Virus record (IMG/VR): IMGVR_UViG_3300017653_000203
Span: 1-55,245 of that record
Origin: a virus
Taxonomy: Duplodnaviria; Caudoviricetes
Length of the DNA: 55,245 bases
Strand: one strand, 5' to 3'
Part shown: piece after piece, positions 1,184 to 17,291 of the stretch
Numbering within the stretch: position 1 is the first letter of the stretch
How the letters are laid out: each line of letters opens with the position of its first letter
The notes under the pieces: generated by a model
What the model was told of the DNA's origin: nothing
Database searches by the model: none
Seen by the model: only the letters and a program-made list of their open reading frames with translations
Program-made: the position numbers and the translations under genes

Positions 1184-1242
1184 CTAGCGGCTAGCGTGTG
1201 ATTTCGGACAATTTCTGTATAACATTAATAGGAGGCGATCGT

Positions 1243-2139
1243 ATGGGTTCGAAAATTCTCGTAATGGAAAAGTCCGGTATGTCTTACGTAAAGTTAACGG
1301 AGTACAGAAAAGTTTACGGACAGTACGTTATTAACGGCGAGGAAGCGAAGGCGGCGCCAGGCGACGAGCGATATGCGATAGTAAACGGAAAAGTCGAGAG
1401 AATCGAAGTAAAGCGGAAGCCGCAGCCGAAGTTAATCGGATATAAGTTGTATGAACGGTATCACGAAATAACGCAACTCCCGCACGATATGCCGGCTGAC
1501 GCTTTTTACCGCGACGAAGATGGCGACCTTTGCGGTGAAAATGCGGAGTTCTATCGGCCGGTGTATGACGAGCCGCAGCCGTACCTTGAGCCGGTCGAAT
1601 TCGAAGTAATTGACCGCGACTGCGAACCGGTTAAAATCCCATCATATGTCGTAATCGAGTTTCCGAATAATATCGCGCAGTTTCCGGAAACGCAGCATAA
1701 ATATCCGTGCTTCATCCGGTCGGAGGACGTTTTCAACCTGCTGTATGATCGAGTGAAGGCGCACGCGGCGACCTCTGACGGAAAGTATGTGACGGACGAT
1801 TACCGAAATATTCAAGCTCTCCGCGTCGAGGAACGGATCGAGATACCGTACCATGAAACGAAAACAACTTCGCATTACCCGACGGCGCGGTCGCGTAAAC
1901 CGAAAACATATACGGTACAAGTCCGCTGGAAGAACGTTAAAGTTTTCGAAATTTACGGACCGAAATATTCCGTCAACTCTACGAATAATCTACCGCGTAC
2001 AGGACCGATTCGCGGCACCAACTACGCGGAGCTGCAGGCGAACCTAGAAACGTACATTCAATCGTTCTTATCGCAAATGACGGAAGGTAAGCGGAAAGTT
2101 TGCGAGTGTTGCCGAGGGGAGGGCGTTATAGCGGTATGA
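1243..2139 (+). CDS. Hypothetical protein with C-terminal Cys motif (CECCRGEG)
   Basis: GGAGG at 1231-1235 favours ATG 1243 over the ORF-track start. Confidence 0.75.
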   Translation: MGSKILVMEKSGMSYVKLTEYRKVYGQYVINGEEAKAAPGDERYAIVNGKVERIEVKRKPQPKLIGYKLYERYHEITQLPHDMPADAFYRDEDGDLCGENAEFYRPVYDEPQPYLEPVEFEVIDRDCEPVKIPSYVVIEFPNNIAQFPETQHKYPCFIRSEDVFNLLYDRVKAHAATSDGKYVTDDYRNIQALRVEERIEIPYHETKTTSHYPTARSRKPKTYTVQVRWKNVKVFEIYGPKYSVNSTNNLPRTGPIRGTNYAELQANLETYIQSFLSQMTEGKRKVCECCRGEGVIAV

Positions 2140-2557: not shown

Positions 2558-3619
2558 TTATTTGAACTTCTCGACTATTGAAATTATTTCGTCTTTGTAA
2601 TTAATTATGTCCGAAACCTGATTAATCGGATGTGTCGTTCTGCTTTCGTTATTTAACATTAGCGATTTGTTTGTGCCGTTCAAGTAAAGACGACATACCC
2701 ATTTTCGAATGTTATCATCAATCAAAATGTTGAAATAGCTCTTGTTGTCTCTATAGTATAGTCTACTAGGGTCAATTGCATCCTTCATTAGCACTTTTAC
2801 TGTGATGTAACCTTCAATTTCTTCCTCTGTAGTGACAATTTCGGGATCATCGACGTCGGCAGAGGTAGCCGCGACTTCATCGACAAGAGCAGGAGGTTCG
2901 CTGTTAGTATTCTCCAAAGCACTTTTTAGTTTATCGTTTAAGAAGTCATTCATAAACTGCTTAAGTGCCTTTTGAACAATACCGCTAAAACGTTCCATAA
3001 CAACTTTAGTTTTTACGCCTGTGTATGCATCGGAGATGACAAGTTTAATAAACTCTTCCGATGGGGTCTCCCACTGTCTCTTTAAGTATTGTTTTATCTC
3101 ATTTGTGTATTTTAACTCTGAGGCAGTGTTAATGATATGTTCGACATTAAAGTTCGACTTCGTAAATTTCTGCAACTCTGTCCACTGGTGATCTCTTATG
3201 TCAAAGATATTGAGCTCAAAGAACGGTAATGTATCCATTTTATTCTGTTCGTCTAGGTCGGTATAAAACCTATAAATTATTCCGTTTGTCAGTATGGCAA
3301 ATTTGGATGGAGTCGTGCCAAAATACCTGAACAACTGGGAATCATGTCTCTCTAACTTTTCTTGAATGGACTTTGCCTCAATTAAGATAATCGGCCTTCC
3401 ATCTTGGAGTATTGCGTAATCTACTTTTTCGCCTCTTTTGATACCTACATCAGCGGTAAATTCAGGCAAAAACTCTTCTGGGTTAAAAACGTCATAACCA
3501 AGAGCTTGAAAAAAGGGCATTATAACGGATGTTTTCGTTGCTTCTTCGGTAGTAATACTATCTTTCATTTTCTGCAGGCGCTTTGCCAGGTTTCTTACAG
3601 GTTCTTTGAAATTGTCCAT
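2558..3619 (-). CDS. Stand-alone type I restriction enzyme R subunit N-terminal (HSDR_N-like) PD-(D/E)XK nuclease-domain protein
   Basis: EEATK...PFFQALGY...PEFTADVG...EKVDYAI...IEAK...QLFRYF...ILTNG motifs; AT-rich relative to flanks. Confidence 0.85.
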   Translation of the reverse strand: MDNFKEPVRNLAKRLQKMKDSITTEEATKTSVIMPFFQALGYDVFNPEEFLPEFTADVGIKRGEKVDYAILQDGRPIILIEAKSIQEKLERHDSQLFRYFGTTPSKFAILTNGIIYRFYTDLDEQNKMDTLPFFELNIFDIRDHQWTELQKFTKSNFNVEHIINTASELKYTNEIKQYLKRQWETPSEEFIKLVISDAYTGVKTKVVMERFSGIVQKALKQFMNDFLNDKLKSALENTNSEPPALVDEVAATSADVDDPEIVTTEEEIEGYITVKVLMKDAIDPSRLYYRDNKSYFNILIDDNIRKWVCRLYLNGTNKSLMLNNESRTTHPINQVSDIINYKDEIISIVEKFK

Positions 3620-3715
3620 GTAGAGTCACCCCAGGATTCCTATTATAGTAAACTACAAAATCTAGTACTATTATACTGAATTTCCTAGGTTTAGTATACA
3701 GACGAAGTGAATTTA

Positions 3716-3925
3716 CTAATAAGGAACAAACTCTACTACGTCTTCGATCCGGCATTCTAAATACTCACAGACCGTACGAAGCGTTCCGACTGATACGTCA
3801 ATGTCGTTATAGAGACGGCTTATAGTATTTTTGTTTATGCCAGTAGCCTGCTCTAATTCTTTACGTGAGATTCCAAGATCGGCCATTTTTACGCGGAATG
3901 GGCGGTAGCTTAATTTTAAAGCCAT
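3716..3925 (-). CDS. XRE/Cro-C1 family HTH repressor
   Basis: ISRKELEQATGINKNTISRL...TLRTVCEYLECRIEDVVEF; divergent from the rightward promoter. Confidence 0.9.
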   Translation of the reverse strand: MALKLSYRPFRVKMADLGISRKELEQATGINKNTISRLYNDIDVSVGTLRTVCEYLECRIEDVVEFVPY

Positions 3926-3990
3926 ACTTTACACCTTCTTAGTGGGGGGATACTAACGATAATAGCATAATTCCGAGTTTAATAAACTAA

Positions 3991-4010
3991 TTTCCTAATA
4001 TATTAGGAAA
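3991..4010. promoter_or_regulatory. Operator palindrome
   Basis: Perfect 20-bp palindrome TTTCCTAATATATTAGGAAA. Confidence 0.75.
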
Positions 4011-4015
4011 AAGTA

Positions 4016-4044
4016 TTGACGTCCTAGTAAATTAGGATTAATAT
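4016..4044 (+). promoter_or_regulatory. SigA-type promoter with a second operator between -35 and -10
   Basis: TTGACG-17 nt-TAATAT; TCCTAGTAAATTAGGA at 4022-4037 matches the TCCTA-N6-TAGGA core. Confidence 0.75.
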
Positions 4045-4050
4045 AGGTCA

Positions 4051-4386
4051 TAGCAATCATTACCAACTAACGAATCACCCGATATACCCCGCAATACCCG
4101 CCTCGCCTCGCAGTACATACGCGAACGCAACGTCCGATCCCGCAGGCATCCCCAGCGCCACGCGCAACTGCCTATATCGGAACAGTTCGCACCACGCAAC
4201 AGCCGGCCTAACGGCTACCGCGCAATAACCTCCGCAAAGTTAACGAAATTCTGACGTATCCCCTACGCAGGATTATCGAAAAGAAACGAGCATCCTCTAC
4301 GCTTGTTTCGAAACTGGCGCGAGGCTATTCGGCTTTGCGTCGGAGTAACGAAAATATGCCGGCGGGCTTACGTAAGGGAGGCGGAA
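4051..4386 (+). ncRNA. Candidate structured leader RNA or sRNA with ten CGCA motifs
   Basis: About 335 nt between promoter and first RBS; CCGATATA/TATATCGG stem; hairpins with G-U pairs on + strand. Confidence 0.5.
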
Positions 4387-4611
4387 ATGGGAATGGCGAA
4401 AACAATGAAAGAAGCAGGTATCACGAGACAAATGGTTATTGATCACATTATTGTTGACATTCAAGCAAGATTTAATATCAGTAAGTCGACGGCAACGGAA
4501 TACTTTAATGAATCTCTTGCCTATAACGTGGTAACAGAAGGTATTTTCGATCAGATAGCATACATGATCGAAACAGGCAGCAGATTGGACTGGTCAGGGG
4601 TCGAGGGATAA
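4387..4611 (+). CDS. Hypothetical protein
   Basis: GGGAGG RBS before ATG 4387 or 4393. Confidence 0.7.
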   Translation: MGMAKTMKEAGITRQMVIDHIIVDIQARFNISKSTATEYFNESLAYNVVTEGIFDQIAYMIETGSRLDWSGVEG

Positions 4612-4652
4612 ATAACACAGGCCCTACGAGGCTAATCGAAGGAGATGACGGA

Positions 4653-5045
4653 ATGAACAAGTTTGAATACGGTACGCTTGTGCGAGTAGTCGGGGATTCA
4701 CCGAGGTATCACGGTCACGAAGGTGTAGTGAAAGGGGTATCGTCTGCGGAAGGGCATGTGCGCGTTAGGTTTCCGGAGTTCGGACGTAACGGGCATACCG
4801 TAGAAATGAGATCCGAATATTTAGCGGCAATTGAACCGGAGAAACAAGAGGCAACCGAGCTATTCGCAACTATCAACTATAGCGAACACTCTCTGCTTGG
4901 CTCGCATTGGGTATGCCGACTGTCGGAGCCCGGCGGTTATGTGTGGCACGGACAAGTCGCGCATACGGATTTTACGCCGAACTTGTCGCGAGATTCGTTC
5001 GTTGAAAAATGCCGAGAGTTCTTCGGCGAGATTACGGTTAGGTAG
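4653..5045 (+). CDS. Hypothetical protein with N-terminal KOW/SH3-like module
   Basis: FEYGTLVRVVG...HGHEGVVKGV...VRVRF; AAGGAG RBS. Confidence 0.65.
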   Translation: MNKFEYGTLVRVVGDSPRYHGHEGVVKGVSSAEGHVRVRFPEFGRNGHTVEMRSEYLAAIEPEKQEATELFATINYSEHSLLGSHWVCRLSEPGGYVWHGQVAHTDFTPNLSRDSFVEKCREFFGEITVR

Positions 5046-5048
5046 GAG

Positions 5049-5246
5049 TTGACGAAAATGAACGTTGAAGCAACGTTATCCGCACGACTCGAAATCGGCC
5101 GTCACCTTGCGTACGTTAAACGGAACGGCCTGGCGGATCAGATTGGCGGCTTTACGGAATGGGCGGCGCTCTGCGGATACAGTCGGCAACAAGCGGACAG
5201 GCTCGTACGGTTGGCGGAATTAGCCGAAGGGCGGCCGGCGGTATGA
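5049..5246 (+). CDS. Hypothetical protein (DUF3102-like helical)
   Basis: LEIGRHLAYVK...GGFTEWA...GYSRQQADRLVRLA. Confidence 0.55.
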   Translation: MTKMNVEATLSARLEIGRHLAYVKRNGLADQIGGFTEWAALCGYSRQQADRLVRLAELAEGRPAV

Positions 5247-5425
5247 GTGCGAAGTCGCTAACCGACCGCGTCCGCTACTATCTGCGAAAATGCAACGATT
5301 ACGGCCGACGCAGAATGACCGGTAACCGCACGCCGGCGAACCGTTATCAACGGTTGCTCGTTTACCGCGACGAAATACGAAGGAGGGCGAAAAATGATCG
5401 GACAAGTCGGAAAGACCGTTATTAA
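5243..5425 (+). CDS. Small basic hypothetical protein
   Basis: ATGA overlap at 5243. Confidence 0.5.
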   Translation: MSAKSLTDRVRYYLRKCNDYGRRRMTGNRTPANRYQRLLVYRDEIRRRAKNDRTSRKDRY

Positions 5426-5555
5426 TTACGCTGGCGCCCCGCACCGGATGCTGCTCGAACTGGCGGATATCGCCGAGTTATCCGGCAACGACAGGCTCCG
5501 CCGCATGTGGCAGGCGAACTATTTACGGATGACTGACGAAAGGAGGACGCGATAA
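5394..5555 (+). CDS. Hypothetical protein, 53 aa (not in ORF track)
   Basis: AAGGAGG RBS, ATG 5394, stop abuts next ATG. Confidence 0.6.
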   Translation: MIGQVGKTVINYAGAPHRMLLELADIAELSGNDRLRRMWQANYLRMTDERRTR

Positions 5556-5759
5556 ATGCGTGGGTATAATTACGGAGTACGTGTTGGGAAGCCGCTTGCT
5601 CCTCGAACATTTGCGGTTTATATCGTAAATGAATTAGTCGAGTTGATTTACGCCAGTTCACGCGAGTCGGCGAACAGGTGGGCGCAAAATAAATACGGCA
5701 ACGAGGCGTATATCATGGAAAATGCGCAGGCTCTCGATGTAACTTACGAAGGATACTGA
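5556..5759 (+). CDS. Hypothetical protein
   Basis: AAGGAGG RBS. Confidence 0.65.
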   Translation: MRGYNYGVRVGKPLAPRTFAVYIVNELVELIYASSRESANRWAQNKYGNEAYIMENAQALDVTYEGY

Positions 5760-5768
5760 GGTGATAGA

Positions 5769-6134
5769 ATGAACCGCGAAGAAATCATAGCGAAATGGGA
5801 CGGAATGACCGCGCGTGAACGAGACGCTTGGGTGGCGGAGGTTGTTACGAAGGTACCGCGTGAGAGGCGTAGAATAAACTGTCCTGACGGTGACCGAGGC
5901 TGTGCCGTTATACATTTCGCGTATTATCCGAATTACTCAACGGACACTTCCGCGGCGTGGACGGTTGTTGAAGCAGCGGAATGGTCAGCGCTAATCAATT
6001 ACACACCGACACTTACACGTGCGAATTTTCATCGTAATGGGTGGGCGCAGTATGACGTCTATGCTACGAAAGCGCCCGAAGCAATCTGCCTCGCCGCACT
6101 ACTAGCAAAGCTCACGGAGGTGATCGCTAATTGA
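5769..6134 (+). CDS. Phage ABA-sandwich domain protein
   Basis: ERDAWVAE...PNYSTDTSAAWTVVE...APEAICLAALLA pattern. Confidence 0.7.
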   Translation: MNREEIIAKWDGMTARERDAWVAEVVTKVPRERRRINCPDGDRGCAVIHFAYYPNYSTDTSAAWTVVEAAEWSALINYTPTLTRANFHRNGWAQYDVYATKAPEAICLAALLAKLTEVIAN

Positions 6135-6910
6135 CGCAAGTATCATTTTCGACGCACTCGCAACACTGTAATCTCCGCTCAATCTGTTCGTTAGCCGACG
6201 ATACGACCGCTTGCAACCGTCTATGCTCGTCATACATCGCGATCCACGGACTAAACGGCGACGGCGGTCGGACGGCTGCGGCGAACATTCCGGACGGCTA
6301 TCGATTAGTTACGCTCGCCAATTCGGCAGCGGCCGCGGATCAATCGGCAATATACGGAGAGCTGGCGAAATACGCCGCGACGTTCAGCCGGCAATTTGAC
6401 CCGGACGAAACGCAAATTAAATCGCTATACCTGTATTCAGCGGAACCAGGCACGGGCAAGACGACGACGGCCGCGGCGTTACTCAACGAATACTTAGCGG
6501 TGCATTACGTCGGCTCACTCCGACGAGGACTGCAGCCAAACGCGCGGCCAGCGTATTTTCTCGACGTGAACGCGTGGCAGACGGATTTTAACGCATTCAA
6601 CCGGCCGCGGGTACCCGAATCAATCGCCGCGCCCGCCGCCGAAAGGTATTACCGCAGTCAATCCGCAGCGACCAGCGCAGGCTTCCTCGTAATGGACGAT
6701 ATAGGCGTACGCGACGCATCTGAAGCGTTTCGAGCCGACTTACACACGTTGATCAATTCTCGGGTGGCAGCGGGATTGCCGACCGTGTATACGTCAAATA
6801 TTCCGATGGCCGAGCTTGCTACGCTGTTTGACCGGCGGCTCGCGGACCGCGTGCGGGACATGTGCGCCGAGTTTACGTTCAAAGGCGTGAGTAAACGTGG
6901 ATTAAGATAG
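6131..6910 (+). CDS. DnaC/IstB-like AAA+ helicase loader
   Basis: Walker A PGTGKTT, Walker B LVMDDIG, TVYTSN, RLADRV; N-terminal Cys/His cluster. Confidence 0.88.
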   Translation: MTQVSFSTHSQHCNLRSICSLADDTTACNRLCSSYIAIHGLNGDGGRTAAANIPDGYRLVTLANSAAAADQSAIYGELAKYAATFSRQFDPDETQIKSLYLYSAEPGTGKTTTAAALLNEYLAVHYVGSLRRGLQPNARPAYFLDVNAWQTDFNAFNRPRVPESIAAPAAERYYRSQSAATSAGFLVMDDIGVRDASEAFRADLHTLINSRVAAGLPTVYTSNIPMAELATLFDRRLADRVRDMCAEFTFKGVSKRGLR

Positions 6911-7319
6911 TGCGATAAACTGAGAAAAACGGAGTATTCACGAGATTGGGCTTTTTGAACGATGAAATCTTCACTTTTTAAATCGTTTCTAATCGTAACG
7001 TATCGTGACTGAAAACGAAAATCGCACAAAAAACCTTATCTAAACGTATCTAATCGTATTCTCGTGGCGGCGACAGATTCGAACGGTAAATTTTCGAAAA
7101 CGGCTGAATATGACGTTTGAGCATTTTTACCATTCGAAGTATATTACGGTGAGGAGATACGAGAAAAGTAAAACGAAGAAAACGGGAGTAAACGAGCGGG
7201 AAATAAAAGTATTTCCCTTTTATATTATAGAAACGAAACTCTCGGAAATGGCCGAATTTGGCGTTTGTCCAATATTATCCACGTTAGTATACTCATTACA
7301 TCGAAGGAGGCAGCGAAAA

Positions 7320-8684
7320 GTGAGCGTAACAGAACCGCTATTATCGAAAATTATTGACGCAAACGACGTCGGCGCACTCGACCGTTTCGGTATCACGCGC
7401 GGCATGTTCGAAACGCCGACGGAACAGGCAGCTTTCGATTTTATACGTAAGTATGCCGAACAGAACGGACAGGCTCCGTCATATGCAACGCTGGTCGGTA
7501 ACGTGCCGGACTTTACGTATATACCGGCGGTCACGGACACGTACGAGTATCTTACGGGCAAGCTAAAAGAGACGTACGGCATGCGACAAATTGCGGACTT
7601 TTTCGGCAGCGGCGAGCTAAACGAGATGTTCAACGCGATAGGCAGGACGTCGAACATTGACGAATTTTATTCTTCATTGACGGAAAAGCTCCGAGAGATT
7701 AAACTTAAAATACGAACGGATGTTCGTGAAATTGGAATGGATTTAGCGAACAGCGGCGACCGGTTTATCTCCGAATACGAAGCGCGGGCGGCCGGTAAAT
7801 CGCACCGTATATGGCGGTCGAAGTTCCCAGGCGTAAACAATGCGCTCGGCGGCGGTTACTATTCGTCGAACACCTACGTTTTCTTCGCGCGATCCGGCCG
7901 CGGTAAATCTATCATTACGATGGAGGAAGCGATAGAGTTCGCGTTCCAAGGCGCGACGGTCCTCGTATGGGCGCTCGAAATGGGCTGGTTCGAATGGATG
8001 GCGCGGGCATTCTCGTCGATATCGGCGCGGCTCGGACTGGCGAACGCCACGATTGACGGTATCGATTACGATGCTGGCTTCGATAACCGCGCGCTGCAGT
8101 CCGCGAAATTACCGCCGGAATACGAACAAGCTTTCCGGAAATTTATCGGTGAGCTCAACGAAATATTGCCGGGAAAGATTATTCTCCGGGCGACCGACGA
8201 TGAACACTTTTCCGAACGGAATCTCGCGGCACTGCGGGCTGACATTCTCGAAACGGGCGCCGACGTTGCGGTAATCGATCCGTTCTATTATCTCGACTAC
8301 GAAAAGAACACGTCGAAAACGGCCGGCGGCGACGCGGCGGCAACTTCGCGGAAACTCCGGATATTGACCGGCTCGCTCGGTTGCTTGACGCTGGCGATTA
8401 CGCAGGCCGACGAAGATGCGAGCGAGAAAGACGACGAAGGAGTTCGTGAGCTGAAACCGCCAAAACGGGCCGGAGTGTCGAAAACGAAGCAACTACTTCA
8501 AGACGGTGCGGCGTTAATCGGACTCGATACGTTGGCTCACGAAGGGCGCGGCGTTATCGAAATCGGGAAAGGACGCAGCGGCGGCGAGGACACACGGATC
8601 GAAATCGTGTATCTGCCTAACTACGGGATTGTGCGCGAGCCGGTGGCGGAGGATACGGCGGGGAAATTCGTAGGGAATTTTTAA
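7320..8684 (+). CDS. DnaB-like replicative helicase
   Basis: ARSGRGKS, ALEM, VIDPFY, ITQ, KGRSG motifs; AAGGAGG supports GTG 7320. Confidence 0.92.
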   Translation: MSVTEPLLSKIIDANDVGALDRFGITRGMFETPTEQAAFDFIRKYAEQNGQAPSYATLVGNVPDFTYIPAVTDTYEYLTGKLKETYGMRQIADFFGSGELNEMFNAIGRTSNIDEFYSSLTEKLREIKLKIRTDVREIGMDLANSGDRFISEYEARAAGKSHRIWRSKFPGVNNALGGGYYSSNTYVFFARSGRGKSIITMEEAIEFAFQGATVLVWALEMGWFEWMARAFSSISARLGLANATIDGIDYDAGFDNRALQSAKLPPEYEQAFRKFIGELNEILPGKIILRATDDEHFSERNLAALRADILETGADVAVIDPFYYLDYEKNTSKTAGGDAAATSRKLRILTGSLGCLTLAITQADEDASEKDDEGVRELKPPKRAGVSKTKQLLQDGAALIGLDTLAHEGRGVIEIGKGRSGGEDTRIEIVYLPNYGIVREPVAEDTAGKFVGNF

Positions 8685-8763
8685 AATGAATGAAGCGGTG
8701 ACTTGTAAGTTGATTATAATATAAAGCATATATAAATAATAAAATGATATTAACATAAACATA

Positions 8764-8793
8764 TTGCAATATTACTCATGTGTGTGTTAATAT
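8764..8793 (+). promoter_or_regulatory. SigA-type promoter (extended -10) in an AT-rich gap
   Basis: TTGCAA-18 nt-TAATAT with TGn. Confidence 0.5.
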
Positions 8794-8817
8794 TCAGTCA
8801 TAGCGAGGTGGATAAAT

Positions 8818-9234
8818 GTGTCAAACGTAAATGAGTACTTAACGAAGAAAGCAAATGAGATTCTAGAGAACAAGAAGAGAAGTCGCGGCTCAGAAAAACG
8901 ACTAACAATTATTTTAAGTGAGTATGATTACCGACGTCTTAAGTTTATCTCAGACATTTTGAGCGAGCCCGTGAGTGCTTTTGCAAGAAACTTAATAGCG
9001 CAAGCGTTAAGCGATGCGGAAAAAGTACTTAAACTACAGGAGACTGAGGACGAACCTTCTGACTTTGATCCGGAAATTGGGCCATTGTACGAGTACACGA
9101 AGTATGGAGCGTTTATTAATTCCACAGGCAATATCGACGGGGACGATGAAGACACAGATGGAAACATAAGTAGCGACGCTCACGGGTCTGAACAAAAGCG
9201 TAGTACGAGAAGGCCAAGACCACCGCAAAGGTAG
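8818..9234 (+). CDS. Putative ribbon-helix-helix DNA-binding protein with acidic tail
   Basis: RLTIILSEYDYRRLKFISD...PVSAFARNLIAQAL; GAGGTG RBS. Confidence 0.55.
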   Translation: MSNVNEYLTKKANEILENKKRSRGSEKRLTIILSEYDYRRLKFISDILSEPVSAFARNLIAQALSDAEKVLKLQETEDEPSDFDPEIGPLYEYTKYGAFINSTGNIDGDDEDTDGNISSDAHGSEQKRSTRRPRPPQR

Positions 9235-9245
9235 GTATCTGCGGC

Positions 9246-10247
9246 ATGATTACTATTCGTGGACCAAACGTAACCACAACGGAACTCTCCGTCGACGTTC
9301 GCGCCGAACTCGAAGCCTTCGAATGGACGCGCGCTACGTGGACGTCGGACAAGTTAATCGCAGCTAGCCCGTTCCGCTACGAAAGCCGCCCGTCATTTGC
9401 GGTAATCTTCGAGCACGGCGGCTGGCGTGATTACGGCGCTACCGATTCGAAATGGGCGAGCGGATCGTTCGTACGATTGCTATCTTTCCTCCGACGGGAA
9501 ACTGCCGAAGAAACAGCGGAATATTTGGCGGCGAGGTATAACGGCTTCGCTACGCCCGGCGACGAAATAACGCTCAACGTACCGAAGCTAACGCTACCAG
9601 CCCGCCGAATAACGCGAATTGACGACGGCATTCTCGACGGATACCGATATCGCTCGCCGTACTTAGCCGGCCGCGGCATTAGCGAGGGCGTCCAGCGGTT
9701 AATGCGGATTGGTTACGATAAGCAGCGGCGGGCAATTACGATTCCGTGGTTTAATCCGGACGGCTCGCTCGGCAACGTAAAGTACCGGCGCACCGATTCG
9801 AAAACGTTTTGGTATGCACCCGGCGGCCGTCCGATTCGCGAAATGCTTTACGGTATTAACATCGCTTATGAGCGACGGATTAAACGGGCGGCGATCGTCG
9901 AGGCGGAAATCGATGCATTGACATTAATGTCGGCAGGCATATTCGCTATCGCGACCGGCGGAACGGCATTTACGGCGGCAAAAGCGGATTTGTTGCTCCG
10001 GTCACCGATCGAGGAATTGATAATTTTCCGCGATAACGACTCGGCCGGACGAGCCTGGCGTAACGCTATTGTATCGGCGGTCGGCGATAGGATGGACGTA
10101 AGGCTGGCTCTAGTGGATCGGCGGTACAAGGACATTAACGAGTGGCGTGTTGCGGAAGGCCTGCGGCGGGCGGCGGAACGAGCGCGGCGTTGTCGAAGAA
10201 TGACGTTTAATATACGTTGCTGTCGAGGGCTGGCGGTTGTACAATAA
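9246..10247 (+). CDS. DNA primase (TOPRIM domain)
   Basis: YLAGRGIS, IPWF...NVKYR, IVEAEIDALT, FRDNDSAG. Confidence 0.9.
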   Translation: MITIRGPNVTTTELSVDVRAELEAFEWTRATWTSDKLIAASPFRYESRPSFAVIFEHGGWRDYGATDSKWASGSFVRLLSFLRRETAEETAEYLAARYNGFATPGDEITLNVPKLTLPARRITRIDDGILDGYRYRSPYLAGRGISEGVQRLMRIGYDKQRRAITIPWFNPDGSLGNVKYRRTDSKTFWYAPGGRPIREMLYGINIAYERRIKRAAIVEAEIDALTLMSAGIFAIATGGTAFTAAKADLLLRSPIEELIIFRDNDSAGRAWRNAIVSAVGDRMDVRLALVDRRYKDINEWRVAEGLRRAAERARRCRRMTFNIRCCRGLAVVQ

Positions 10248-10282
10248 TTCTACGAAACGTAGAACATCGGACGGCCGAGCGC

Positions 10283-10498
10283 TCATTCCGTTGACCACTC
10301 GTATAATTCACGGGGAGAAACGCCCAACGTATCCGCAAGAGCGACGGCGGTTTCTAACGTCATCCTGCGGCGGCGTCCGGTCGCATAGAACGAGATAATT
10401 CGTTCGTCTACGCCCGATAATTCCGCGAGTTGACGCTGCGTCCAGCCGCGAGATTCGAGTAAGTCCGGAATAAGGCAGCGGCCGACCGTAATCGGCAT
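10283..10498 (-). CDS. XRE family HTH regulator
   Basis: RGWTQRQLAELSGV...ISFYATG...LETAVALADTLGVSPRELYEW; GGAGG RBS. Confidence 0.9.
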   Translation of the reverse strand: MPITVGRCLIPDLLESRGWTQRQLAELSGVDERIISFYATGRRRRMTLETAVALADTLGVSPRELYEWSTE

Positions 10499-10539
10499 CG
10501 CGGAGCCCTCCGAAAAAGTTTATAATAAATTGCAAAAGC

Positions 10540-10574
10540 ATGTCCCAAATTCCGAAAAGTATGTACTTACTATA
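10540..10574 (+). promoter_or_regulatory. Putative phage-sigma promoter, copy 1
   Basis: ATGTCCCAA...TGTACTTACTATA, repeated with identical spacing at 25919-25953. Confidence 0.55.
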
Positions 10575-10591
10575 TTGAGAGGTGATTGCTA

Positions 10592-11173
10592 TTGAACAAT
10601 GAACAACTGAATAAGCTTGCAGTGAGTGCCCGGAACGGGTGCGAGGAGTCATACCACGAAATCCTCAAACACTTCCTTCCTCGAATCTACTCCATGTCAG
10701 ACTACATATGGCACTCTGTTTCCAACGAAACTCACTTCGAGCAAAGCTGTCTAGTAGGTATTAGAGACGCTATCGAAAGATTCGACCCTACTCGCGGTAC
10801 GTTTTCAGCTCAAGTCAATTGGAGGTTTCGCCAGGCAATGCGAAGGTCCGCCGATAGACTGAGAAAACGTCGACGAGGTTACGATGTAGAGTCACTTGAC
10901 GAGTACCGAAAAGATGAAGATGAAAAAGGCAGTAAGTACGAAATTGTCGACGATTTGGCGATCGTGGACGATAGAGTTATCGTATTTGAAAAAGTCGCCC
11001 TCTTGGCGGAGGACGACCCACGGAAATTGGCGATCCTTAACGCATGGACTAACGGTTATTTTAACGATTCAGAAACCGCGTCGTTTTTGGCGAAACGATA
11101 CGGAGGCAATTCCGAATCACACCGGAAGTTCATACTACGCTTTCGGACCACTTGTCGCAAGGCATTGGCATAG
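10592..11173 (+). CDS. Phage-encoded sigma70-family factor
   Basis: Region 2 signature ARNGCEESYHEIL...GIRDAIERFDPTRGTFSA; GAGGTG RBS favours TTG 10592. Confidence 0.8.
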   Translation: MNNEQLNKLAVSARNGCEESYHEILKHFLPRIYSMSDYIWHSVSNETHFEQSCLVGIRDAIERFDPTRGTFSAQVNWRFRQAMRRSADRLRKRRRGYDVESLDEYRKDEDEKGSKYEIVDDLAIVDDRVIVFEKVALLAEDDPRKLAILNAWTNGYFNDSETASFLAKRYGGNSESHRKFILRFRTTCRKALA

Positions 11174-11328
11174 CCCTTTGACACTACCATTATAACATAC
11201 GTCAGCAGTTACGATAAAATAGTAATTTCTGCGGCCGCTCGGCGTTTAGGCATTACGTCGAGAAATCCGGAGAAAAACCACGCTACCCGTCTGCACGTTG
11301 ATGTTCTTGGTTATCATTTACAGTTTAT

Positions 11329-11357
11329 ACTATAACGTAATTTTTTATACGTGTCAA
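11329..11357 (-). promoter_or_regulatory. Leftward SigA promoter, antisense to the sigma gene
   Basis: On - strand: TTGACA-17 nt-TATAGT. Confidence 0.65.
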
Positions 11358-11383
11358 TAAAATTATTAACGGAGGTTTGACGA

Positions 11384-11554
11384 ATGTTTAACGAAAACTC
11401 TCGTAATTCTATACGCAATTCTCACGCTAACGTTTCAAATATTTCGCAGCTTTTACGGATTTCTTCGCAATATGACGGAGCGCTCTCGCCCGACGCCGAT
11501 CCGGCCGACGTTCTGCCGAGGAACCTCTGCGTAAAGGGGGCGCGGCTCGGATGA
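11384..11554 (+). CDS. Hypothetical protein, 56 aa (not in ORF track)
   Basis: GGAGG RBS, ATG 11384, ATGA overlap with next gene. Confidence 0.55.
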   Translation: MFNENSRNSIRNSHANVSNISQLLRISSQYDGALSPDADPADVLPRNLCVKGARLG

Positions 11555-12120
11555 CAGCAGCGGTAGTTTCCGAACAATCACGTAATTTTGTCGGCAAAGT
11601 GTACGTATCGCAGCACGCTATCGACCGCGCCGTCGAGCGGTTCAGCATAGCGCCGGATAAAGCGGAGCAATGGATTCGCGATAACGTTAAAAAGGCGCGG
11701 TACGTCGCTGTTACCGTGTCGGCGGAGGACGGCGGCCGTGAATCGCGGCTGTTCGTTTGGCAACGGGTGGCGTATCTACTCGCTATGGATATGGACCGCG
11801 TCATTACGATATATGCGCAGCATCACGCGCCTTCCTCGCTAAGTCAACGCGTCCAATCGCTGTTAAACCGCGAGTTGATGCGGGCCGAGCGGAAGGAGGC
11901 GGCCGCTATCCGGAAGGCGGAAATCGAGCGCGCTGAACTATCCATCGAGCAAGCACGCTGCAATTATCGTATGACCGTCACACCGTCGGCTGCCGTAATC
12001 AAGGTGAACACGAAGCGTCTCCGCGAAATTGAACGGCGGCTAGCGGAGATTGATACGGAGGTGCTCGCGGTAAAGAAGGAGAAATCGGCGATAGCGCGCG
12101 GATTGATAGCGTATCTATAA
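11551..12120 (+). CDS. Hypothetical protein (HAxxRxxER N-terminal domain plus coiled coil)
   Basis: VSQHAIDRAVERF...RVITIY, then a long helical region. Confidence 0.7.
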   Translation: MTAAVVSEQSRNFVGKVYVSQHAIDRAVERFSIAPDKAEQWIRDNVKKARYVAVTVSAEDGGRESRLFVWQRVAYLLAMDMDRVITIYAQHHAPSSLSQRVQSLLNRELMRAERKEAAAIRKAEIERAELSIEQARCNYRMTVTPSAAVIKVNTKRLREIERRLAEIDTEVLAVKKEKSAIARGLIAYL

Positions 12121-12121
12121 C

Positions 12122-12420
12122 GAAAGTCTGACGAAGGGATAACGATATTCCTCCGTCGGCTAGGCGGTATTAACTGGCTCGTAACGGTTAGTACCGTCTC
12201 GCGGACGGAGGATCGTAGGAGTCGCGTAACGAGGGACGGACATTGATTCGTTCCGCGCGTAAAACCGGAGTTTTCACGAGGTTGTCCCGCGTATACGTAC
12301 AAAGGACGTAATTGCGTAATAGTACGACGATTAGACGCATCCACCCGAGTCCGGGCCGAAGCGTAAGTCGGTAAACTACGGGTCGACACGTAGTAGAACC
12401 GCAATCCTACGATTCTGCGT
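12122..12420 (+). ncRNA. Candidate multi-stem structured RNA upstream of the SSB-like gene
   Basis: 15-bp stem with 3 G-U pairs (12162-76/12185-99); long-range stem 12210-20/12405-15 enclosing several hairpins. Confidence 0.55.
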
Positions 12421-12455
12421 TCGAAAAATTAATTTCCGAAGGGAAGCGTGATTGA

Positions 12456-13253
12456 ATGTCCATGTTTACGAAGGTAGGCGCGGCGGCAGCGGCAGTTAGT
12501 GGTAATGACGGAGGCGGCAACGATAGTCCGATTGTTTCGTTCAAGTCCGGCAGTCTTTACAAAGTCGGCGTTAAATCGATTAACGACGTTGCCGAGTATT
12601 ACGGTTACGGAATCTACAAGCGCGTAAACACCTTTGTGCCTAAGAATCCGTCAGTGCGTAATAGCCGCGGCTTCATCGAATCGAACCCGTCAATTTGGGA
12701 CAAAGCGGCCGACCTACTGTACGCCGACGCAAAAGCAGCGGAAGAGTCCGGCGCATCCGAGTCCGACGTTAAGGATATCCGTGACGAGGCGTATTTGTTC
12801 CGTGGCAAGAAGCGTTACTTACGCGCCTTCTACGATTTAACGACCGGTAAAGATATCGTCGTCGACCTAAGCCCTACACAAGAAGCAACGTTAAAAGCCG
12901 CCATTGAAGAAAACGCGGACGATCTCGATGTTATTGCGTTTAAACTCGCGAAAAAAGGCGCAGGAACGGCCGCCGTCGTATCGCTATCTGCCATCGTCAA
13001 GCCGGAACGCGACCTAACGGACGAAGAACGTGTTAACTTCGCAAAAATCGGCGAGACTCCGTTCGACCTTAACTCGTTCGAAACGTGCTTGTACGTTGCA
13101 GACGAGGCGGAGCAAACGAAGAACCTCGTTATTGCCGGATTCGATATCGCGAGGCTCGGTCTAAGTATTGGCGCAATCGTAACGAAGTCTGACGAAGCGG
13201 CTGACGCTAAACCGATTTCGGACGCCGATGCCCCGCCGGAAGTTAATTTTTAA
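12456..13253 (+). CDS. Putative single-stranded DNA-binding protein
   Basis: Position in the replication module; acidic flexible tail ending in Phe (DAPPEVNF). Confidence 0.6.
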   Translation: MSMFTKVGAAAAAVSGNDGGGNDSPIVSFKSGSLYKVGVKSINDVAEYYGYGIYKRVNTFVPKNPSVRNSRGFIESNPSIWDKAADLLYADAKAAEESGASESDVKDIRDEAYLFRGKKRYLRAFYDLTTGKDIVVDLSPTQEATLKAAIEENADDLDVIAFKLAKKGAGTAAVVSLSAIVKPERDLTDEERVNFAKIGETPFDLNSFETCLYVADEAEQTKNLVIAGFDIARLGLSIGAIVTKSDEAADAKPISDADAPPEVNF

Positions 13254-13270
13254 CGGAAGGGTGACGCAGC

Positions 13271-13471
13271 ATGAACGAAGCAGCGGCACTATTAGAACGG
13301 CCGGCGACGGCAAAATACGGAGGATTCGGCGGTAATCATCCGCCATTCTCCGTAGCACCAGCCGCACCGGGACCGGACGATTACGAGAGAGGACGTGTTT
13401 TCTACGGCACATATAACGGAAGTGACCGGCAAGTATTCGGAATTAATCGCAAGAGCGTCGCTGCTCGCTAA
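13271..13471 (+). CDS. Hypothetical protein
   Basis: AAGGGTG RBS; overlaps the next ORF by about 75 nt. Confidence 0.4.
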   Translation: MNEAAALLERPATAKYGGFGGNHPPFSVAPAAPGPDDYERGRVFYGTYNGSDRQVFGINRKSVAAR

Positions 13472-13862
13472 CGGCTGGCGTGTTCATACGTCAGATACCG
13501 AAGAGGCGTACGATATTCTCGCGACCGATCCCGTAAGCAGCGAACACGTACGTATCCAGGTCAAAACGATTAGGCAACGTATTGACCGGATTAAACGGGA
13601 CGGCACCGTCGATCTCGTCGTGTACGCGAAGAAAGGCAACGGTGAGCCGTACGATCAATCCGACGCTGATGCGATTATTGGCGTCCTGGCGGTCGATGGC
13701 GAAGTGCCCCGCGTGTATATGTTCGAAAACCGCGGTATCGGCGAATACTGGGCCAGCGAACAGCGTGCGGCCGAGCGGTGGATCGAGTTACCTATCGCGT
13801 TGAACCGGGCAGATTTCGTCACGGAAACGGAGGCGGCCGCCGATGATCGAGCAGCCGCTTGA
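13395..13862 (+). CDS. PD-(D/E)XK endonuclease
   Basis: GKYSELIA...YDILA...IQVKT...Y...DAIIGV; start codon uncertain. Confidence 0.75.
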   Translation: MFSTAHITEVTGKYSELIARASLLANGWRVHTSDTEEAYDILATDPVSSEHVRIQVKTIRQRIDRIKRDGTVDLVVYAKKGNGEPYDQSDADAIIGVLAVDGEVPRVYMFENRGIGEYWASEQRAAERWIELPIALNRADFVTETEAAADDRAAA

Positions 13863-14058
13863 GCCGCCGGAGCCGGCCGCTGTTGCGGAATGTGCCTGGT
13901 GCCGCGGCGAGATATACGAAGGCGACGAAGTTAAGCGGATTGACGATGGTGGAGGCTTCGTTCACGACGGTTGGAAGCGAAGCTGCGCGGCTGAATACGC
14001 CATGGAACGGGTGTACGACGCGGAAGGCGTTATCGGACGAGATTTAACGATAAATTAA
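13843..14058 (+). CDS. Small zinc-binding hypothetical protein
   Basis: CAWCRGEIYEGD...H...C; GGAGG RBS. Confidence 0.65.
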   Translation: MIEQPLEPPEPAAVAECAWCRGEIYEGDEVKRIDDGGGFVHDGWKRSCAAEYAMERVYDAEGVIGRDLTIN

Positions 14059-14075
14059 CGAGGAGCGATGTGTAA

Positions 14076-15251
14076 ATGGCGAAATTGGACGTTGTAATTC
14101 CGAGTGCGGACATAGAGGTACGGCAGGCTGACGGTAGTACCGTGAAATACCGGAAGGTTGGTCGTCCCGCGCGCGTAGGTGACGTTGTGAGATCCCTAGA
14201 AACGGACGATGGAATTACGAAGGATGCGTTCTACGAAGTTACTGGCAGCGGTGGTGGATACGTAGAGTTCTACGATAATGACGGCGACGAACGTTATCGT
14301 GACGTAGAAGATTACGAAGTATACGAAAAAGTCGCCGACTCATCTGATATCGTTACGCACGAAGGCCGTCAATACCGTAAGGTGAAGCGGAAGGCGAACG
14401 TTGGCGAACTCGTTTATAGCGAAACTGGCGGAAAGGTGTACACGGTATCGGCGGATGTCGAGTTAGATGACGACAAGCTCTCTGTCGGATACGTTAACGG
14501 GGCAATGCACCGTTTATCCGTTCTCGAACCGTTAACTAGCGATAAGCCGATCGAGCATCCGAAGCCTGACCGTTTGAAAGTCGGCGAATATGCGAAGGCC
14601 GCAGGTCCGCAGAGAAACGCTTTGTACCGCAAAGAAGGCGATTATGTGAAAATCGTCGAGGATGACAGAAGCAGCCGTCCGTTTAGAACGGAGCATCTCG
14701 ACGGAAGTATCGCAGGCTGGGCGTACGAGTCCGATTTAGTCCGCGCTACGGCCGACGAAGTTGCCGCTGCGCTCCGTAAAGTTGACGCGCCAAAACCGAA
14801 GTTGGCCCGCATCCCCGTCGGCAGCTACGTTAAAATTCTGACGGATTCCGAAACATTACCGGAGGGCGCTATCGCTAAAGTAACGCGCGACGATGGAGAA
14901 TACGATATTTGGCCGTACAAATGTGAACTACTTGACGGAAGCAACTACGATTGGTATAAGCCGGAACAAATCGAAGCGGTAACGGAAGAGGTCGTGAAAT
15001 GGGCGGCAATCGGACGTAATGTTAACGAGTATAAGACGGGAGACGTCGTTGAAGTAACGAGATCGACCGGTTATGTGCTGGTAGGCTCTATCGGCGTAAT
15101 CGGTAAATACGACAGTAACGATAGTTTCCGCGTGAACACTTTCGAACGTACTGGCTGTAACTGGCACGGATCGAAAGACGTTAAACTCGTCGTTCCAGTC
15201 GAGCAACGTTTCGACACACGTAGCGAAGCCGACTTTCCGTACGCGTCATGA
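14076..15251 (+). CDS. Multi-module protein with repeated SH3/KOW-like units
   Basis: Repeats YRKVGRPARVGD, YRKVKRKANVGE, LKVGEYAK, IPVGSYVKI, YKTGDVVEV. Confidence 0.75.
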   Translation: MAKLDVVIPSADIEVRQADGSTVKYRKVGRPARVGDVVRSLETDDGITKDAFYEVTGSGGGYVEFYDNDGDERYRDVEDYEVYEKVADSSDIVTHEGRQYRKVKRKANVGELVYSETGGKVYTVSADVELDDDKLSVGYVNGAMHRLSVLEPLTSDKPIEHPKPDRLKVGEYAKAAGPQRNALYRKEGDYVKIVEDDRSSRPFRTEHLDGSIAGWAYESDLVRATADEVAAALRKVDAPKPKLARIPVGSYVKILTDSETLPEGAIAKVTRDDGEYDIWPYKCELLDGSNYDWYKPEQIEAVTEEVVKWAAIGRNVNEYKTGDVVEVTRSTGYVLVGSIGVIGKYDSNDSFRVNTFERTGCNWHGSKDVKLVVPVEQRFDTRSEADFPYAS

Positions 15252-17068
15252 ACATTACGCTCTCGTTAAACAAACGCAACGAGTCAACAGCGGCAACCGC
15301 AACAGCAGTAAAGAACGCAGTTAAACGGAAGCAGGCGGCGGTTCCCGAAACGGCGGCCGAGGCGTTCGAGCGAATCGGTAAGATGGCGTTATCCGATAAG
15401 GAACGAACCGCATACGAAGCAGCCCGCCGCGCGCACAAAGACGGACGAATAGGCAACGTCCGATCCGACGGCGCAAAGTGGACGAAAAGCGACGTTGTTA
15501 CCGCGGGCTATCGCTTACTAGCGGATAAGGCGGAAGCAGAACGGGCAGGGCGGATGCGTTCCGTCCTCGCCTCGAAGCCGCCGAACTACCGTATTCTAAC
15601 GGATGATTCCGAGCTGCCTGCGTTTGTTGACCGGTTGCGGCTCGAATGTAAACGACAGATGACGGAGTGGCGCGACCGGTTCAAGGCGCTAGCCGTCGAT
15701 ACGATGACGGCGGGCGACTTCGAGGGTACCGGAGTTGATACGTATATCGATTTATCGATCGGATTTTCGATATGGCTTCCGCTACTTAACGAAGGCTATT
15801 ATCTGCCGTACGGACACGTTGATATGTATAACGGCGGCAGCCCGGCGGAAAGCTTCGAGTTTCTAACGGAAGAGTCGGCGTTTAAGGCGTCCAACCCGCA
15901 GCTCACGCGCTCGAAGGTAATCGAAGCGATTTCGCCATATCTCCGCCGTCCGAATCACGGCAAAACGTTTCATATGGGAAGCGCCCGTTACGATTTGCAC
16001 GTCGCGATAAAGGATGGGTACGAAATCGCCGGCTGCGTATGGGACACGCTCGACGCCATGCGGCATTTGAATGAACACGAACCGTCTTACGGTTTGAAAT
16101 CGCTCGTCGCGAAGTACGGCGCTCTTTTCGGCGTGCCTGGTCCGATATTCACGTTCGAGGACTTATTCGGTAACCGTTCGCCGGCGCCATTCAATACGGA
16201 GTTGGTCGGCATCTACGCCATAAACGACGTACTTTATGGATGGAAACTGTTCGAATGGCAATACACTGCAATGGCGGCAGCACCTTCCGCAAACGGAAAA
16301 GGCCGGTTACTAGAATGTTACGCGAAGATTGACTCGAAGCTTCCGGAAACCGACGTGTTCCTTGCGCGATGTGGCTTCGAAATTGACCGGGCGGGGCTGG
16401 CGCGACTCGAAGCGGAATTTACGCCAAAACTCGAAGAAGCGCGGGCGGCCGTTATTGAATCGTACGGCATTGACGCGGCGTTCGTACGTAGGATGGATCG
16501 TACGTTGAATAAGCGCAAGCTTGACGACTGGATAACGGCGCAGCAACGGAAGATTTCGGCGAAGGCCGACCGGATTGCGAAGCTTAAAGCGGATATGGCT
16601 GCGGACGAGGCGGCAGGCAAAACGCATCTTAAACGGTATACGCAAAACGCCGCGAAGCTTGCCGAATTGGAGACGGAGAATTTACTACCAGCCGACGAAA
16701 AGCACGCGCCGCTATTTACCGATTCGTTTTCGATTACGAACGGAAATCACCTCGCGTATCTGATTTATGACCATCTCGGAATCAGCGACCGGACAAGCCA
16801 ATTTAAGCGAGGCAAGACGCGGAGTACGGCGGCCGACGTACTCGACGCTTATTACGAAGAGGAAGAGGCGCTGAAACCGCTGGCGACCGTTGCGGCATAC
16901 GAAAAATTGCTGAATACGTACGTGACGAAGATTCCGGCGGCGGTCGAGGCGGACGGGCGGCTGCATTCGGAGTTTAAAGCGGGCGGTACGGCGACGGGGC
17001 GTTATTCGAGCGCAGGGTATAGCGGACGGCCGGTCGATATATTACGAGAATTTGAGACGGAGGGATGA
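15248..17068 (+). CDS. Family A DNA polymerase, N-terminal subunit (3'-5' exonuclease, thumb, start of palm)
   Basis: ExoI DFEGTG, ExoII RYDL, ExoIII YAINDV, KLLNTY, DGRLH...TATGRYSS. Confidence 0.92.
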   Translation: MNITLSLNKRNESTAATATAVKNAVKRKQAAVPETAAEAFERIGKMALSDKERTAYEAARRAHKDGRIGNVRSDGAKWTKSDVVTAGYRLLADKAEAERAGRMRSVLASKPPNYRILTDDSELPAFVDRLRLECKRQMTEWRDRFKALAVDTMTAGDFEGTGVDTYIDLSIGFSIWLPLLNEGYYLPYGHVDMYNGGSPAESFEFLTEESAFKASNPQLTRSKVIEAISPYLRRPNHGKTFHMGSARYDLHVAIKDGYEIAGCVWDTLDAMRHLNEHEPSYGLKSLVAKYGALFGVPGPIFTFEDLFGNRSPAPFNTELVGIYAINDVLYGWKLFEWQYTAMAAAPSANGKGRLLECYAKIDSKLPETDVFLARCGFEIDRAGLARLEAEFTPKLEEARAAVIESYGIDAAFVRRMDRTLNKRKLDDWITAQQRKISAKADRIAKLKADMAADEAAGKTHLKRYTQNAAKLAELETENLLPADEKHAPLFTDSFSITNGNHLAYLIYDHLGISDRTSQFKRGKTRSTAADVLDAYYEEEEALKPLATVAAYEKLLNTYVTKIPAAVEADGRLHSEFKAGGTATGRYSSAGYSGRPVDILREFETEG

Positions 17069-17072
17069 ACGG

Positions 17073-17291
17073 ATGAAGATCGAGAAAGGTAGCGCATTAG
17101 GTTACGAATACACCGCACATTTGACGGGAGACGAACTTCGTACATTATCGCTAATTCTTGGCGCGACAAGTCCGGACAAAGTAGATTCATTAGTAAAACG
17201 AGAGGGTTGGGAGCCGGAGTCATTCGTCGAGGATGGCGGTTGGGAGATGTACAACGAAATGGAAGATGCGTTAAATGCTGACGGTAACTGA
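17073..17291 (+). CDS. Small acidic protein inserted between the two polymerase halves
   Basis: GGAGG RBS, ATG 17073, 72 aa; overlaps the start of the C-terminal half. Confidence 0.65.
   Translation: MKIEKGSALGYEYTAHLTGDELRTLSLILGATSPDKVDSLVKREGWEPESFVEDGGWEMYNEMEDALNADGN

Follow-up and report, generated by a model that had tools for sequence, protein, structure and literature searches.

The window analyzed here is a 55,245-nucleotide (nt) stretch of Caudoviricetes DNA, an IMG/VR provirus record (IMGVR_UViG_3300017653_000203), and the subject of this report is the RNA that it encodes once, at positions 4051 to 4386 of the plus strand, as the untranslated leader of a prophage early replication operon. 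This leader belongs to a well-supported family of folded RNAs in Paenibacillaceae proviruses, which is uncatalogued in that it lacks an Rfam match and which is, in kind, a phage early-leader regulatory RNA. Its conserved fold is a three-way junction with two arms that end in C-rich loops, together with a competing hairpin termed P5. Tentatively, and with confidence somewhat short of even, we favor the explanation that the leader exerts cis-acting control after transcription initiation, most likely through Rho entry combined with the alternation between the junction and P5.

An earlier note on this DNA had drawn attention to the region on account of ten CGCA motifs, and had proposed that these form a multivalent binding unit like the GGA repeats of CsrB. 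The broader reading that was developed from that note, namely that the region is a structured RNA leader, is borne out by the conserved fold of 19 homologs. As described below, the motifs themselves fared differently.

Homologous leaders and their distribution

Relatives of the helicase encoded in the window were found at 73 loci, and the five closest for which upstream sequence was available (L005 to L009) carry a homologous leader that is followed by different first genes. Further loci were added through relatives of the repressor. A covariance model of the leader 3' domain (R1) matched 14 IMG/VR loci among 83 sources and confirmed eight of 26 pattern-selected genome loci, from Paenibacillus (six), Cohnella mopanensis, and Brevibacillus reuszeri. 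Removal of duplicates left a non-redundant set of 19 leaders, to which the counts given below refer. Among sampled genomes, R1 matched four of 151 Paenibacillaceae, one of 10 in the genus of the central genome, and one of 151 Bacilli; in each of the last two samples, the match was the central genome itself.

Searches that reached further afield returned little. The leader was not found among helicase relatives at 43-55% identity, and the one candidate inspected when analogous C-rich leaders were sought among distant helicase relatives turned out to be a real gene. Most matches from broad pattern scans were due to chance (about 60 of 74 for viral contigs, 18 of 26 for genomes), and blastn and tblastn searches of a phage collection gave no leader match, only chance matches to mycobacteriophages (E ~0.07). 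Over positions 3950-4700, contigs from four soil-metagenome DNA runs (three studies) match the window at 100% identity, so they offered no variation to analyze. One of these four runs may be the source sample.

When the protein of the first early gene alone was used as the query, the viral scan and the first genome scan were empty. At the only fetchable relative locus of this gene, in a provirus represented by both L002 and L003, the leader differs. It is replaced, at positions 1290-1700 of L002 (equivalent to 3590-4000 of L003), by two tiny open reading frames (ORFs) of 40 and 26 amino acids (aa) with hydrophobic stretches, which sit behind a TTGACT/TATAAT promoter.

Rfam 15 gave no match at gathering thresholds across the whole window, and none at E<=10 for positions 3950-4450 on both strands, with the C4 and c4-a1b1 models included. 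A search of the full-text literature yielded nothing relevant, and the description of the family as previously undescribed rests on Rfam plus this limited literature search.

A three-way junction with a competing hairpin

The earlier note had taken the region to be an untranslated leader, in agreement with which no plus-strand ORF of at least 30 aa is present between 4051 and 4303. The start near 4051 was inferred from the -10 hexamer of the promoter. The fold of the whole leader is more stable than that of shuffled sequences (z = -2.6). Throughout the family, the parts of the RNA follow in the order 5' domain, P1, S0, S1, arm P2/P3, arm P4, S2, and S3, and their places in the window are as follows.

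4051-4217, plus strand: C-rich, G-poor 5' domain (C 65 and G 29 in 162 nt), with seven of the ten CGCA copies and the motifs CCGAUAUACC and GCCUCGCAGUACAUAC
4201-4216, plus strand: small hairpin AGCCG-GCCUAA-CGGCU at the place of P1 in the family, from direct reading and the minimum-free-energy (MFE) fold
4218-4225, plus strand: S0, the outer 5' closing strand CCGCGCAA, which holds the CGCA at 4221 and gives -11.4 kcal/mol with 4334-4343 in RNAduplex
4227-4235, plus strand: S1, the near-invariant AACCUCCGC, which resembles an anti-Shine-Dalgarno (anti-SD) sequence and is the 5' strand of the helix that closes the junction
4244-4278, plus strand: arm P2/P3, a long irregular hairpin with the loop UCCCC at 4259-4263 and the CGCA at 4266 as 3' strand
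4283-4309, plus strand: arm P4, the hairpin GAAACGAGC-AUCCUCUAC-GCUUGUUUC with a C-rich loop, whose stem sequence differs in nearly every member
4317-4326, plus strand: S2, the near-invariant GCGCGAGGCU (GCGCGAGGYU in the family), which pairs with S1 or S3
4314-4343, plus strand: alternative hairpin P5 (S2 with S3), with 12-13 base pairs (bp) including G-U pairs in the window, TGCG at 4336, and a predicted energy of -17.1 kcal/mol

The 5' domain varies from 64 to 171 nt in length and is poorly conserved in sequence, and C exceeds G in all 19 members. The pooled composition is A 0.32, C 0.339, G 0.162, and T 0.18, with C:G ratios of about 1.4 to 2.7. The motifs CCGAUAUACC and CCUCGCA(G/U)UAC are common to the window, L104, L135, L161, and L084. 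In other members, P1 is often CGGAC-ACCCUCA-GUCCG, and CGGAC is present in 10 of the 19 5' domains. S0 is often CCACGCAA elsewhere in the family, whereas S3 is UCGCG or UUGCG. In many members, S0 contains CGCAA and pairs with UUGCG in S3. The equivalent ACGCAAGA:UCUUGCGU helix is strong in L104, L135, L146, and L161, and S0:S3 pairing is likewise strong in L173 and L078; it is moderate in the window and amounts to about 4 bp in the remaining members.

The most conserved parts of the RNA are S1 and S2, with mean column identities of 0.86 and 0.91, and the least conserved are the junctions (0.42); loops as well as closing strands are more conserved than junctions. The P3 loop is CCUC-like, and CCUC, CCCC, or CCC is found in each of the loops of P1, P3, and P4. 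The GAGG of S2 is the only one in the leader upstream of the ribosome-binding site.

A three-way junction closed by S1:S2 is found in all 18 MFE core folds evaluated. The pair statistics were taken from an alignment made with a structure-aware model (R2), in which 81.7% of cells are paired compared with 70.5 ± 1.2 after shuffling (none of 500 as high) and 30-39% in slid controls. Compensatory changes, with substitutions on both sides, are seen in 21 of 30 pairs, and there are 69 double-change cells compared with 28.3 ± 4.8. Changes on both sides affect six of six pairs in P2, five of seven in P3, and seven of eight modeled pairs in P4. For the closing helix, they are seen in L077, where CUCUCCGC is accompanied by GCGCAGAG, and in L078, where CCCUCCGC is accompanied by GCGCAGGG. 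The presence of G-U pairs indicates that the structure belongs to the plus-strand transcript.

P5 is predicted in all 19 members, although it is weak in L092, and it is re-paired where S2 differs (L172, L078, and L077). When S0 is left out of the calculation, the energy of the closed junction minus that of P5 is -1.25 ± 2.0 kcal/mol, and 16 of 19 members fall within 3 kcal/mol. With S0 included, the window leader has no preference between the two states (-45.4 and -45.3 kcal/mol). Stretches complementary to P5 are modestly enriched in the pooled 5' domains (123 vs. 85 ± 10), with individual significance in few leaders.

Two of the hairpins on which the earlier note had commented are real and conserved in the family: GAAACGAGC/GCTTGTTTC is arm P4, and CTGGCGCGAGGC/GCTTTGCGTCGG is P5. 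Its third proposal, that the tract is partly closed by CCGATATA (4079-4086) and TATATCGG (4173-4180), holds insofar as both strands can be read in the sequence, but the MFE structure pairs UCCGAU (4132-4137) instead. Two other candidate features were rejected on reading the leaders: there is no conserved ORF that could encode a leader peptide from a start behind the GAGG of S2, and a hammerhead-like core in the junctions is not consistent.

CGCA motifs compared across the homologous leaders

The ten plus-strand CGCA copies start at 4090, 4109, 4126, 4141, 4163, 4188, 4195, 4221, 4233, and 4266, exactly where the earlier note had placed them, and the complement TGCG is present only once between 3901 and 4500, at 4336. 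There are 333 CGCA copies in the window as a whole, or 1.08 per 180 nt, and a density of at least seven per 180 nt is not reached anywhere else in the window. Local dinucleotide-preserving shuffles of 4079-4275 set a higher expectation of 3.19 ± 1.44, and even so none of 5000 reaches the observed 10. By the same measure, CGCA[AG] is present nine times vs. 1.31 expected (0 of 5000 as high). The 197-nt tract consists of 76 C, 39 G, 52 A, and 30 T, and the strongest excess of C over G in the whole window (skew 0.35) is found here, at 4061. This is consistent with the earlier description of a C-rich tract immediately 3' of the TTGACG/TAATAT promoter.

Comparison with the homologs places these numbers in a different light. 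The 19 leaders carry 10, 8, 7, 7, 6, 5, 5, 4, 3, 3, 3, 2 (six leaders), and 1 (two leaders) copies of CGCA, and five of the 19 are in the top 2% of their own shuffles. Beside the window, the enriched subgroup comprises L172 (8 copies), L117 (7), L133 (7), and L159 (6). Measured from AACCUCCGC, copies recur at -6/-7 in S0 (12 of 19), at +6/+7 at the end of S1 (7 of 19), and near +40 in the 3' strand of P3 (6 of 19), and a further recurrent place is the CCUCGCA motif of the 5' domain. Accordingly, three of the ten copies in the window are strands of conserved helices and two lie in motifs common to relatives. The remaining five look specific to the window; these fall in ~4120-4200, a stretch that, as judged by eye, lacks a counterpart in the nearest leaders.

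In the pooled 5' domains of the family, the word in excess is CCUC(GC) rather than CGCA. The most enriched is CCTC, with 29 copies in 18 of 19 leaders vs. 8.8 expected, and CCTCGC is present 12 times vs. 0.9 expected. CGCAA has 18 copies in nine leaders vs. 8.6 expected, and CGCAAC has 12 copies in eight leaders vs. 3.1 expected.

Neither the number nor the spacing of CGCA is conserved among homologous leaders, a comparison that the earlier note had itself suggested, and this is the outcome that it had named as refuting its proposal. Judged by this comparison of sequences, the ten CGCA copies are not a unit of function. A narrower form of the idea is that an RNA-binding protein is sponged or recruited through multiple CGCA or CGCAA sites, perhaps only in the sub-lineage with many copies. 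The excess in the window (10 vs. 3.2 expected), the enriched subgroup, the recurrence of CGCAAC, and the copy that adjoins the switch strand in 12 of 19 leaders speak for it, and the repetition of a short word many times in one RNA is a feature shared with CsrB and RsmZ sponges. Unlike those RNAs, in which GGA motifs are set in hairpin loops, the family has CGCA counts that range from 1 to 10 (14 of 19 leaders are not enriched), copies that are not set in hairpin loops, and recurrent copies that serve as S0, the end of S1, and the 3' strand of P3. Given also that half of the copies in the window seem specific to it, we assign this proposal little credence. More generally, the case illustrates how a larger conserved structure can give rise, incidentally, to a striking count of a short word in a single genome.

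The repeated words might also act at the level of DNA, for example as replication-origin iterons (CCTCGC and CGCAA) or as sites for some other DNA-binding protein. Their repetition, their strand bias, and the linkage of the leader to a module encoding DnaC-like, DnaB-like, and primase proteins would suit such a role. We regard it as very improbable, because the compensatory changes, together with G-U pairs, suggest that selection acts on a plus-strand, single-stranded fold, because the spacing of the repeats is irregular and their number unconserved, and because the region is GC-rich rather than AT-rich.

Promoter, repressor gene, and operon context

The leader is flanked in the window by the following features.

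3716-3925, minus strand: divergent gene for a 69-aa helix-turn-helix (HTH) repressor of the Cro/C1 type (Pfam HTH_26, 7.7e-17)
3993-4008: operator-like palindrome TCCTAATATATTAGGA, a match to TCCTA-N(2-10)-TAGGA
4016-4044, plus strand: early promoter TTGACG-17-TAATAT
4022-4037: second operator-like palindrome TCCTAGTAAATTAGGA, in the promoter spacer between -35 and -10
4376-4611, plus strand: SD sequence GGGAGG (4376-4381) and first early gene (ATG at 4387, to 4611), which encodes 74 aa without a known family

The pattern TCCTA-N(2-10)-TAGGA has two matches in the window compared with 0.13 expected. Because the second palindrome lies within the promoter spacer, control by a repressor is plausible. 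The association of the leader with a repressor, as the earlier note had described it, is thereby upheld by a promoter that has operator-like palindromes and adjoins a divergent HTH gene.

The same surroundings recur in the family. A divergent HTH repressor gene lies upstream of the leader at 18 of 19 loci, with the same type of repressor (C-terminus CRIEDVVEF) at 13 and a different HTH_3 type at five more. A TTGAC-type promoter is found at the equivalent position in 14 of the 19 by a strict pattern and in four others by eye, and a gene for a DnaC-like loader lies downstream at 16. In the window, the leader is followed by small ORFs without a known family and then by genes for a DnaC-like loader, a DnaB-like helicase, a primase, and a DNA polymerase. 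The first early protein has only five relatives among 5.8 billion proteins. Since the first gene behind the leader is variable, the leader appears to act as a module tied to the promoter.

Several neighboring genes are of interest in their own right. Upstream of the immunity region, 1198-2139 (plus strand) encodes a 313-aa protein with a match to Pfam Gad1 (Gabija anti-defense 1; 3.2e-19). Adjoining the repressor gene, 2558-3619 (minus strand) encodes a 353-aa protein with a type I restriction HSDR_N domain (phrog_4225 "endonuclease", 1.2e-133), which may be a moron or a defense gene. Shortly 5' of the DnaC-like gene, 15 of 19 loci, including the window (5394-5555, plus strand), encode a protein of 43-82 aa with the motif PPRMFLxLA...N..L.R.W..NY.R, for which no Pfam or PHROG match was found. 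Small Arg-rich proteins (..L(I/T)DR(I/L)xY.ERK..) are encoded in the early operon of at least nine loci, including the window (5243-5425, plus strand), and in L157, L177, L084, and L151 the gene stands first behind the leader. These proteins match no known family and could be Cro-like or RNA-binding. Finally, 10586-11173 (plus strand) encodes a 195-aa protein that weakly resembles sigma-70 region 2 (Pfam 0.0013, below the cut-off; phrog_351, 5.5e-06) and may serve the phage as a sigma factor in transcription of middle or late genes.

Possible modes of action

In the explanation that we tentatively favor, the leader would act in cis after initiation to set the productive share of the early transcript. 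The long untranslated C-rich RNA would be a rut-like entry site for host Rho, and the closed junction and P5 would differ in their exposure of C-rich or anti-SD-like strands. This exposure may tune the loading of ribosomes on the first ORF, and hence read-through past Rho. The logic would resemble the translational repression and Rho polarity of the P1 c4 and P4 CI leaders.

Post-initiation control in cis is favored because the leader is long, untranslated, C-rich, and G-poor, because the hosts have Rho, and because no intrinsic terminator is evident in it. Rho (PF07497) scores above the cut-off in all four leader-carrying host genomes checked. The 5' domain of the window has the makings of a rut site, which is expected to be C-rich, G-poor untranslated RNA of ~80 nt or more. 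The earlier note had offered an antitermination or Rho-loading leader as its alternative, and the Rho-loading half of this alternative fits the composition of the 5' domain in all 19 leaders.

Known Rho-dependent leader attenuators that carry a rut site include the mgtA and ribB riboswitch leaders and the leader of rho itself. The family shares with them a long C-rich, G-poor untranslated leader (64-171 nt, 19 of 19), a predicted alternative structure downstream, and hosts that have Rho. It differs in that it resides in Firmicutes, for which few Rho-regulated leaders are known.

A number of results weigh against this explanation. The richness in C could serve a purpose other than Rho entry. 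The covariation counts come from related sequences in an alignment that was fitted to the structure, and those for S1:S2 rest on two members, L077 and L078, that are related to each other. When S0 is included, the closed form is favored in 17 of 19 members by a mean of -5.7 ± 4.8 kcal/mol, and eight of 19 are within 3 kcal/mol, which means that P5 may be only a minor or co-transcriptional state in some of them. P5 is not a canonical intrinsic terminator, as it is followed by no U-tract (0-4 U in the 19 members) and no plus-strand terminator-like site is present in 4051-4386. Across the early operon (3000-18000), terminator-like sites show no excess (13 vs. 19.5 ± 4.6 in shuffled sequence). For the SD of the first gene, predicted pairing is alike in the two states (0.54 vs. 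0.58); six leaders show more of it in the P5 state and two of the 19 show less. To judge from these modeled energies and pairings, the idea of a switch between the junction and P5 seems weaker than it first looked. Lastly, the L173 leader (Cohnella mopanensis, 6773-6901) has no divergent HTH, DnaC-like, or replication genes nearby. At that locus, the upstream gene encodes a 222-aa protein without a Pfam match, and the locus may be a remnant or represent a different context.

The same observations bear on whether the RNA might be a riboswitch, in which the junction would be a small-molecule aptamer and the choice between P5 and the closing stem its expression platform. The predicted arrangement, with a three-way junction and a downstream hairpin that cannot form together, is the standard layout of riboswitches, the structure covaries, and about half of the members have states of nearly equal energy. 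Nevertheless, this is improbable, because the pattern of conservation, lowest in the junction nucleotides (0.42) and highest in helices and loops, is the opposite of that of known aptamers. Furthermore, P5 is not a terminator and does not evidently sequester the SD, and no known riboswitch class was matched.

By analogy, the known elements that seem closest in architecture and location are the c4 (P1/P7) and CI (P4) leader antisense RNAs, and the early leader elements of phages lambda and HK022 are also close. Like lambda nutL, the RNase III site of the lambda N leader, and HK022 put, the window leader is a structured, promoter-proximal early RNA of a temperate phage behind an operator-controlled promoter. 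It might accordingly be a site for processive antitermination of the nut or put kind, or an element for RNase III-type processing or stability, with RNA polymerase or a protein of phage or host origin binding the folded 3' domain. Conservation of S1 and S2 well above the needs of pairing (0.86 and 0.91), a long interrupted closing stem (S0:S3 plus S1:S2) that resembles an RNase III substrate, and the small Arg-rich proteins encoded just downstream at nine or more loci are compatible with such a role. It is quite unlikely all the same, given that the early operon has no excess of intrinsic terminators that would evidently need to be overridden, that no element like boxA or boxB was recognized, and that the small downstream proteins match no known family. 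Moreover, the lambda and HK022 elements are one or two simple hairpins, whereas the family has a three-way junction of ~100-120 nt.

The c4 and CI RNAs are encoded 5' of small ORFs and of antirepressor or replication genes, within the untranslated leader of an early operon under repressor control. They fold into a closing stem and two hairpin arms with conserved loops complementary to ribosome-binding regions, and their output is translational repression followed by Rho-dependent polarity. The window leader is similar in its place in a repressor-associated early operon, its closing stem with two arms, and the small ORFs downstream, and its C-rich composition fits Rho polarity. Unlike c4 and CI, it resides in a Firmicute host, shows no evidence of RNase P-type processing, and belongs to a family with two additions, a long C-rich 5' domain and P5 as a competing hairpin.

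It is therefore worth weighing whether the junction is cut from the leader as a processed antisense RNA, either of the C4/CI type (acting in trans or in cis) or akin to C-rich Firmicute small RNAs such as RoxS and RsaE. Its CCUC loops would then pair with the SD regions of early phage or host mRNAs, in the service of RNA immunity or host takeover. Besides the shared architecture and an operon that has operator palindromes and a divergent HTH gene (18 of 19), this reading draws on the CCUC, CCCC, or CCC of the P1, P3, and P4 loops, on the rank of CCUC as the top-enriched word (29 copies in 18 of 19 5' domains vs. 8.8), and on the conservation of loops and closing strands above that of junctions. 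It is opposed by the lack of any sequence or structure match in Rfam at E<=10, C4 included, and by complementarity to targets that is limited to a generic 4-5 nt CCUC:GGAG, since no extended target of the a2/b2 or seqA/seqC type was found. Neither a terminator nor a known processing signal was found at the 3' end. On balance, we consider a processed antisense RNA unlikely, though far from negligible.

A bolder proposal combines several of these elements. The three-way junction would be an RNA-based device for immunity or for setting a threshold, the first from a Firmicute temperate phage; in it, the 16S anti-SD would be mimicked repeatedly (by S1 and by the loops of P1, P3, and P4) and S2 would be an SD decoy. 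Blocking of ribosomes and abortion of transcription by Rho would silence the replication operon until full induction out-titrates or refolds the RNA, making the leader an independent analog of P1 c4 and P4 CI. We think it doubtful that the whole of this scheme is correct.

Significance of the leader family

The family presents a covariation-supported fold that is placed between an operator-bearing early promoter and replication genes and that stays with the promoter even as the first gene varies. To our knowledge, few regulatory RNAs of the lysis-lysogeny decision have been worked out, and those known (nut, put, c4, CI, OOP, and sar) come from enterobacterial phages. If control through Rho or through anti-SD mimicry is true, then Gram-positive phages would also add an RNA layer to control by a repressor, and the leader would be a compact, portable regulatory module.

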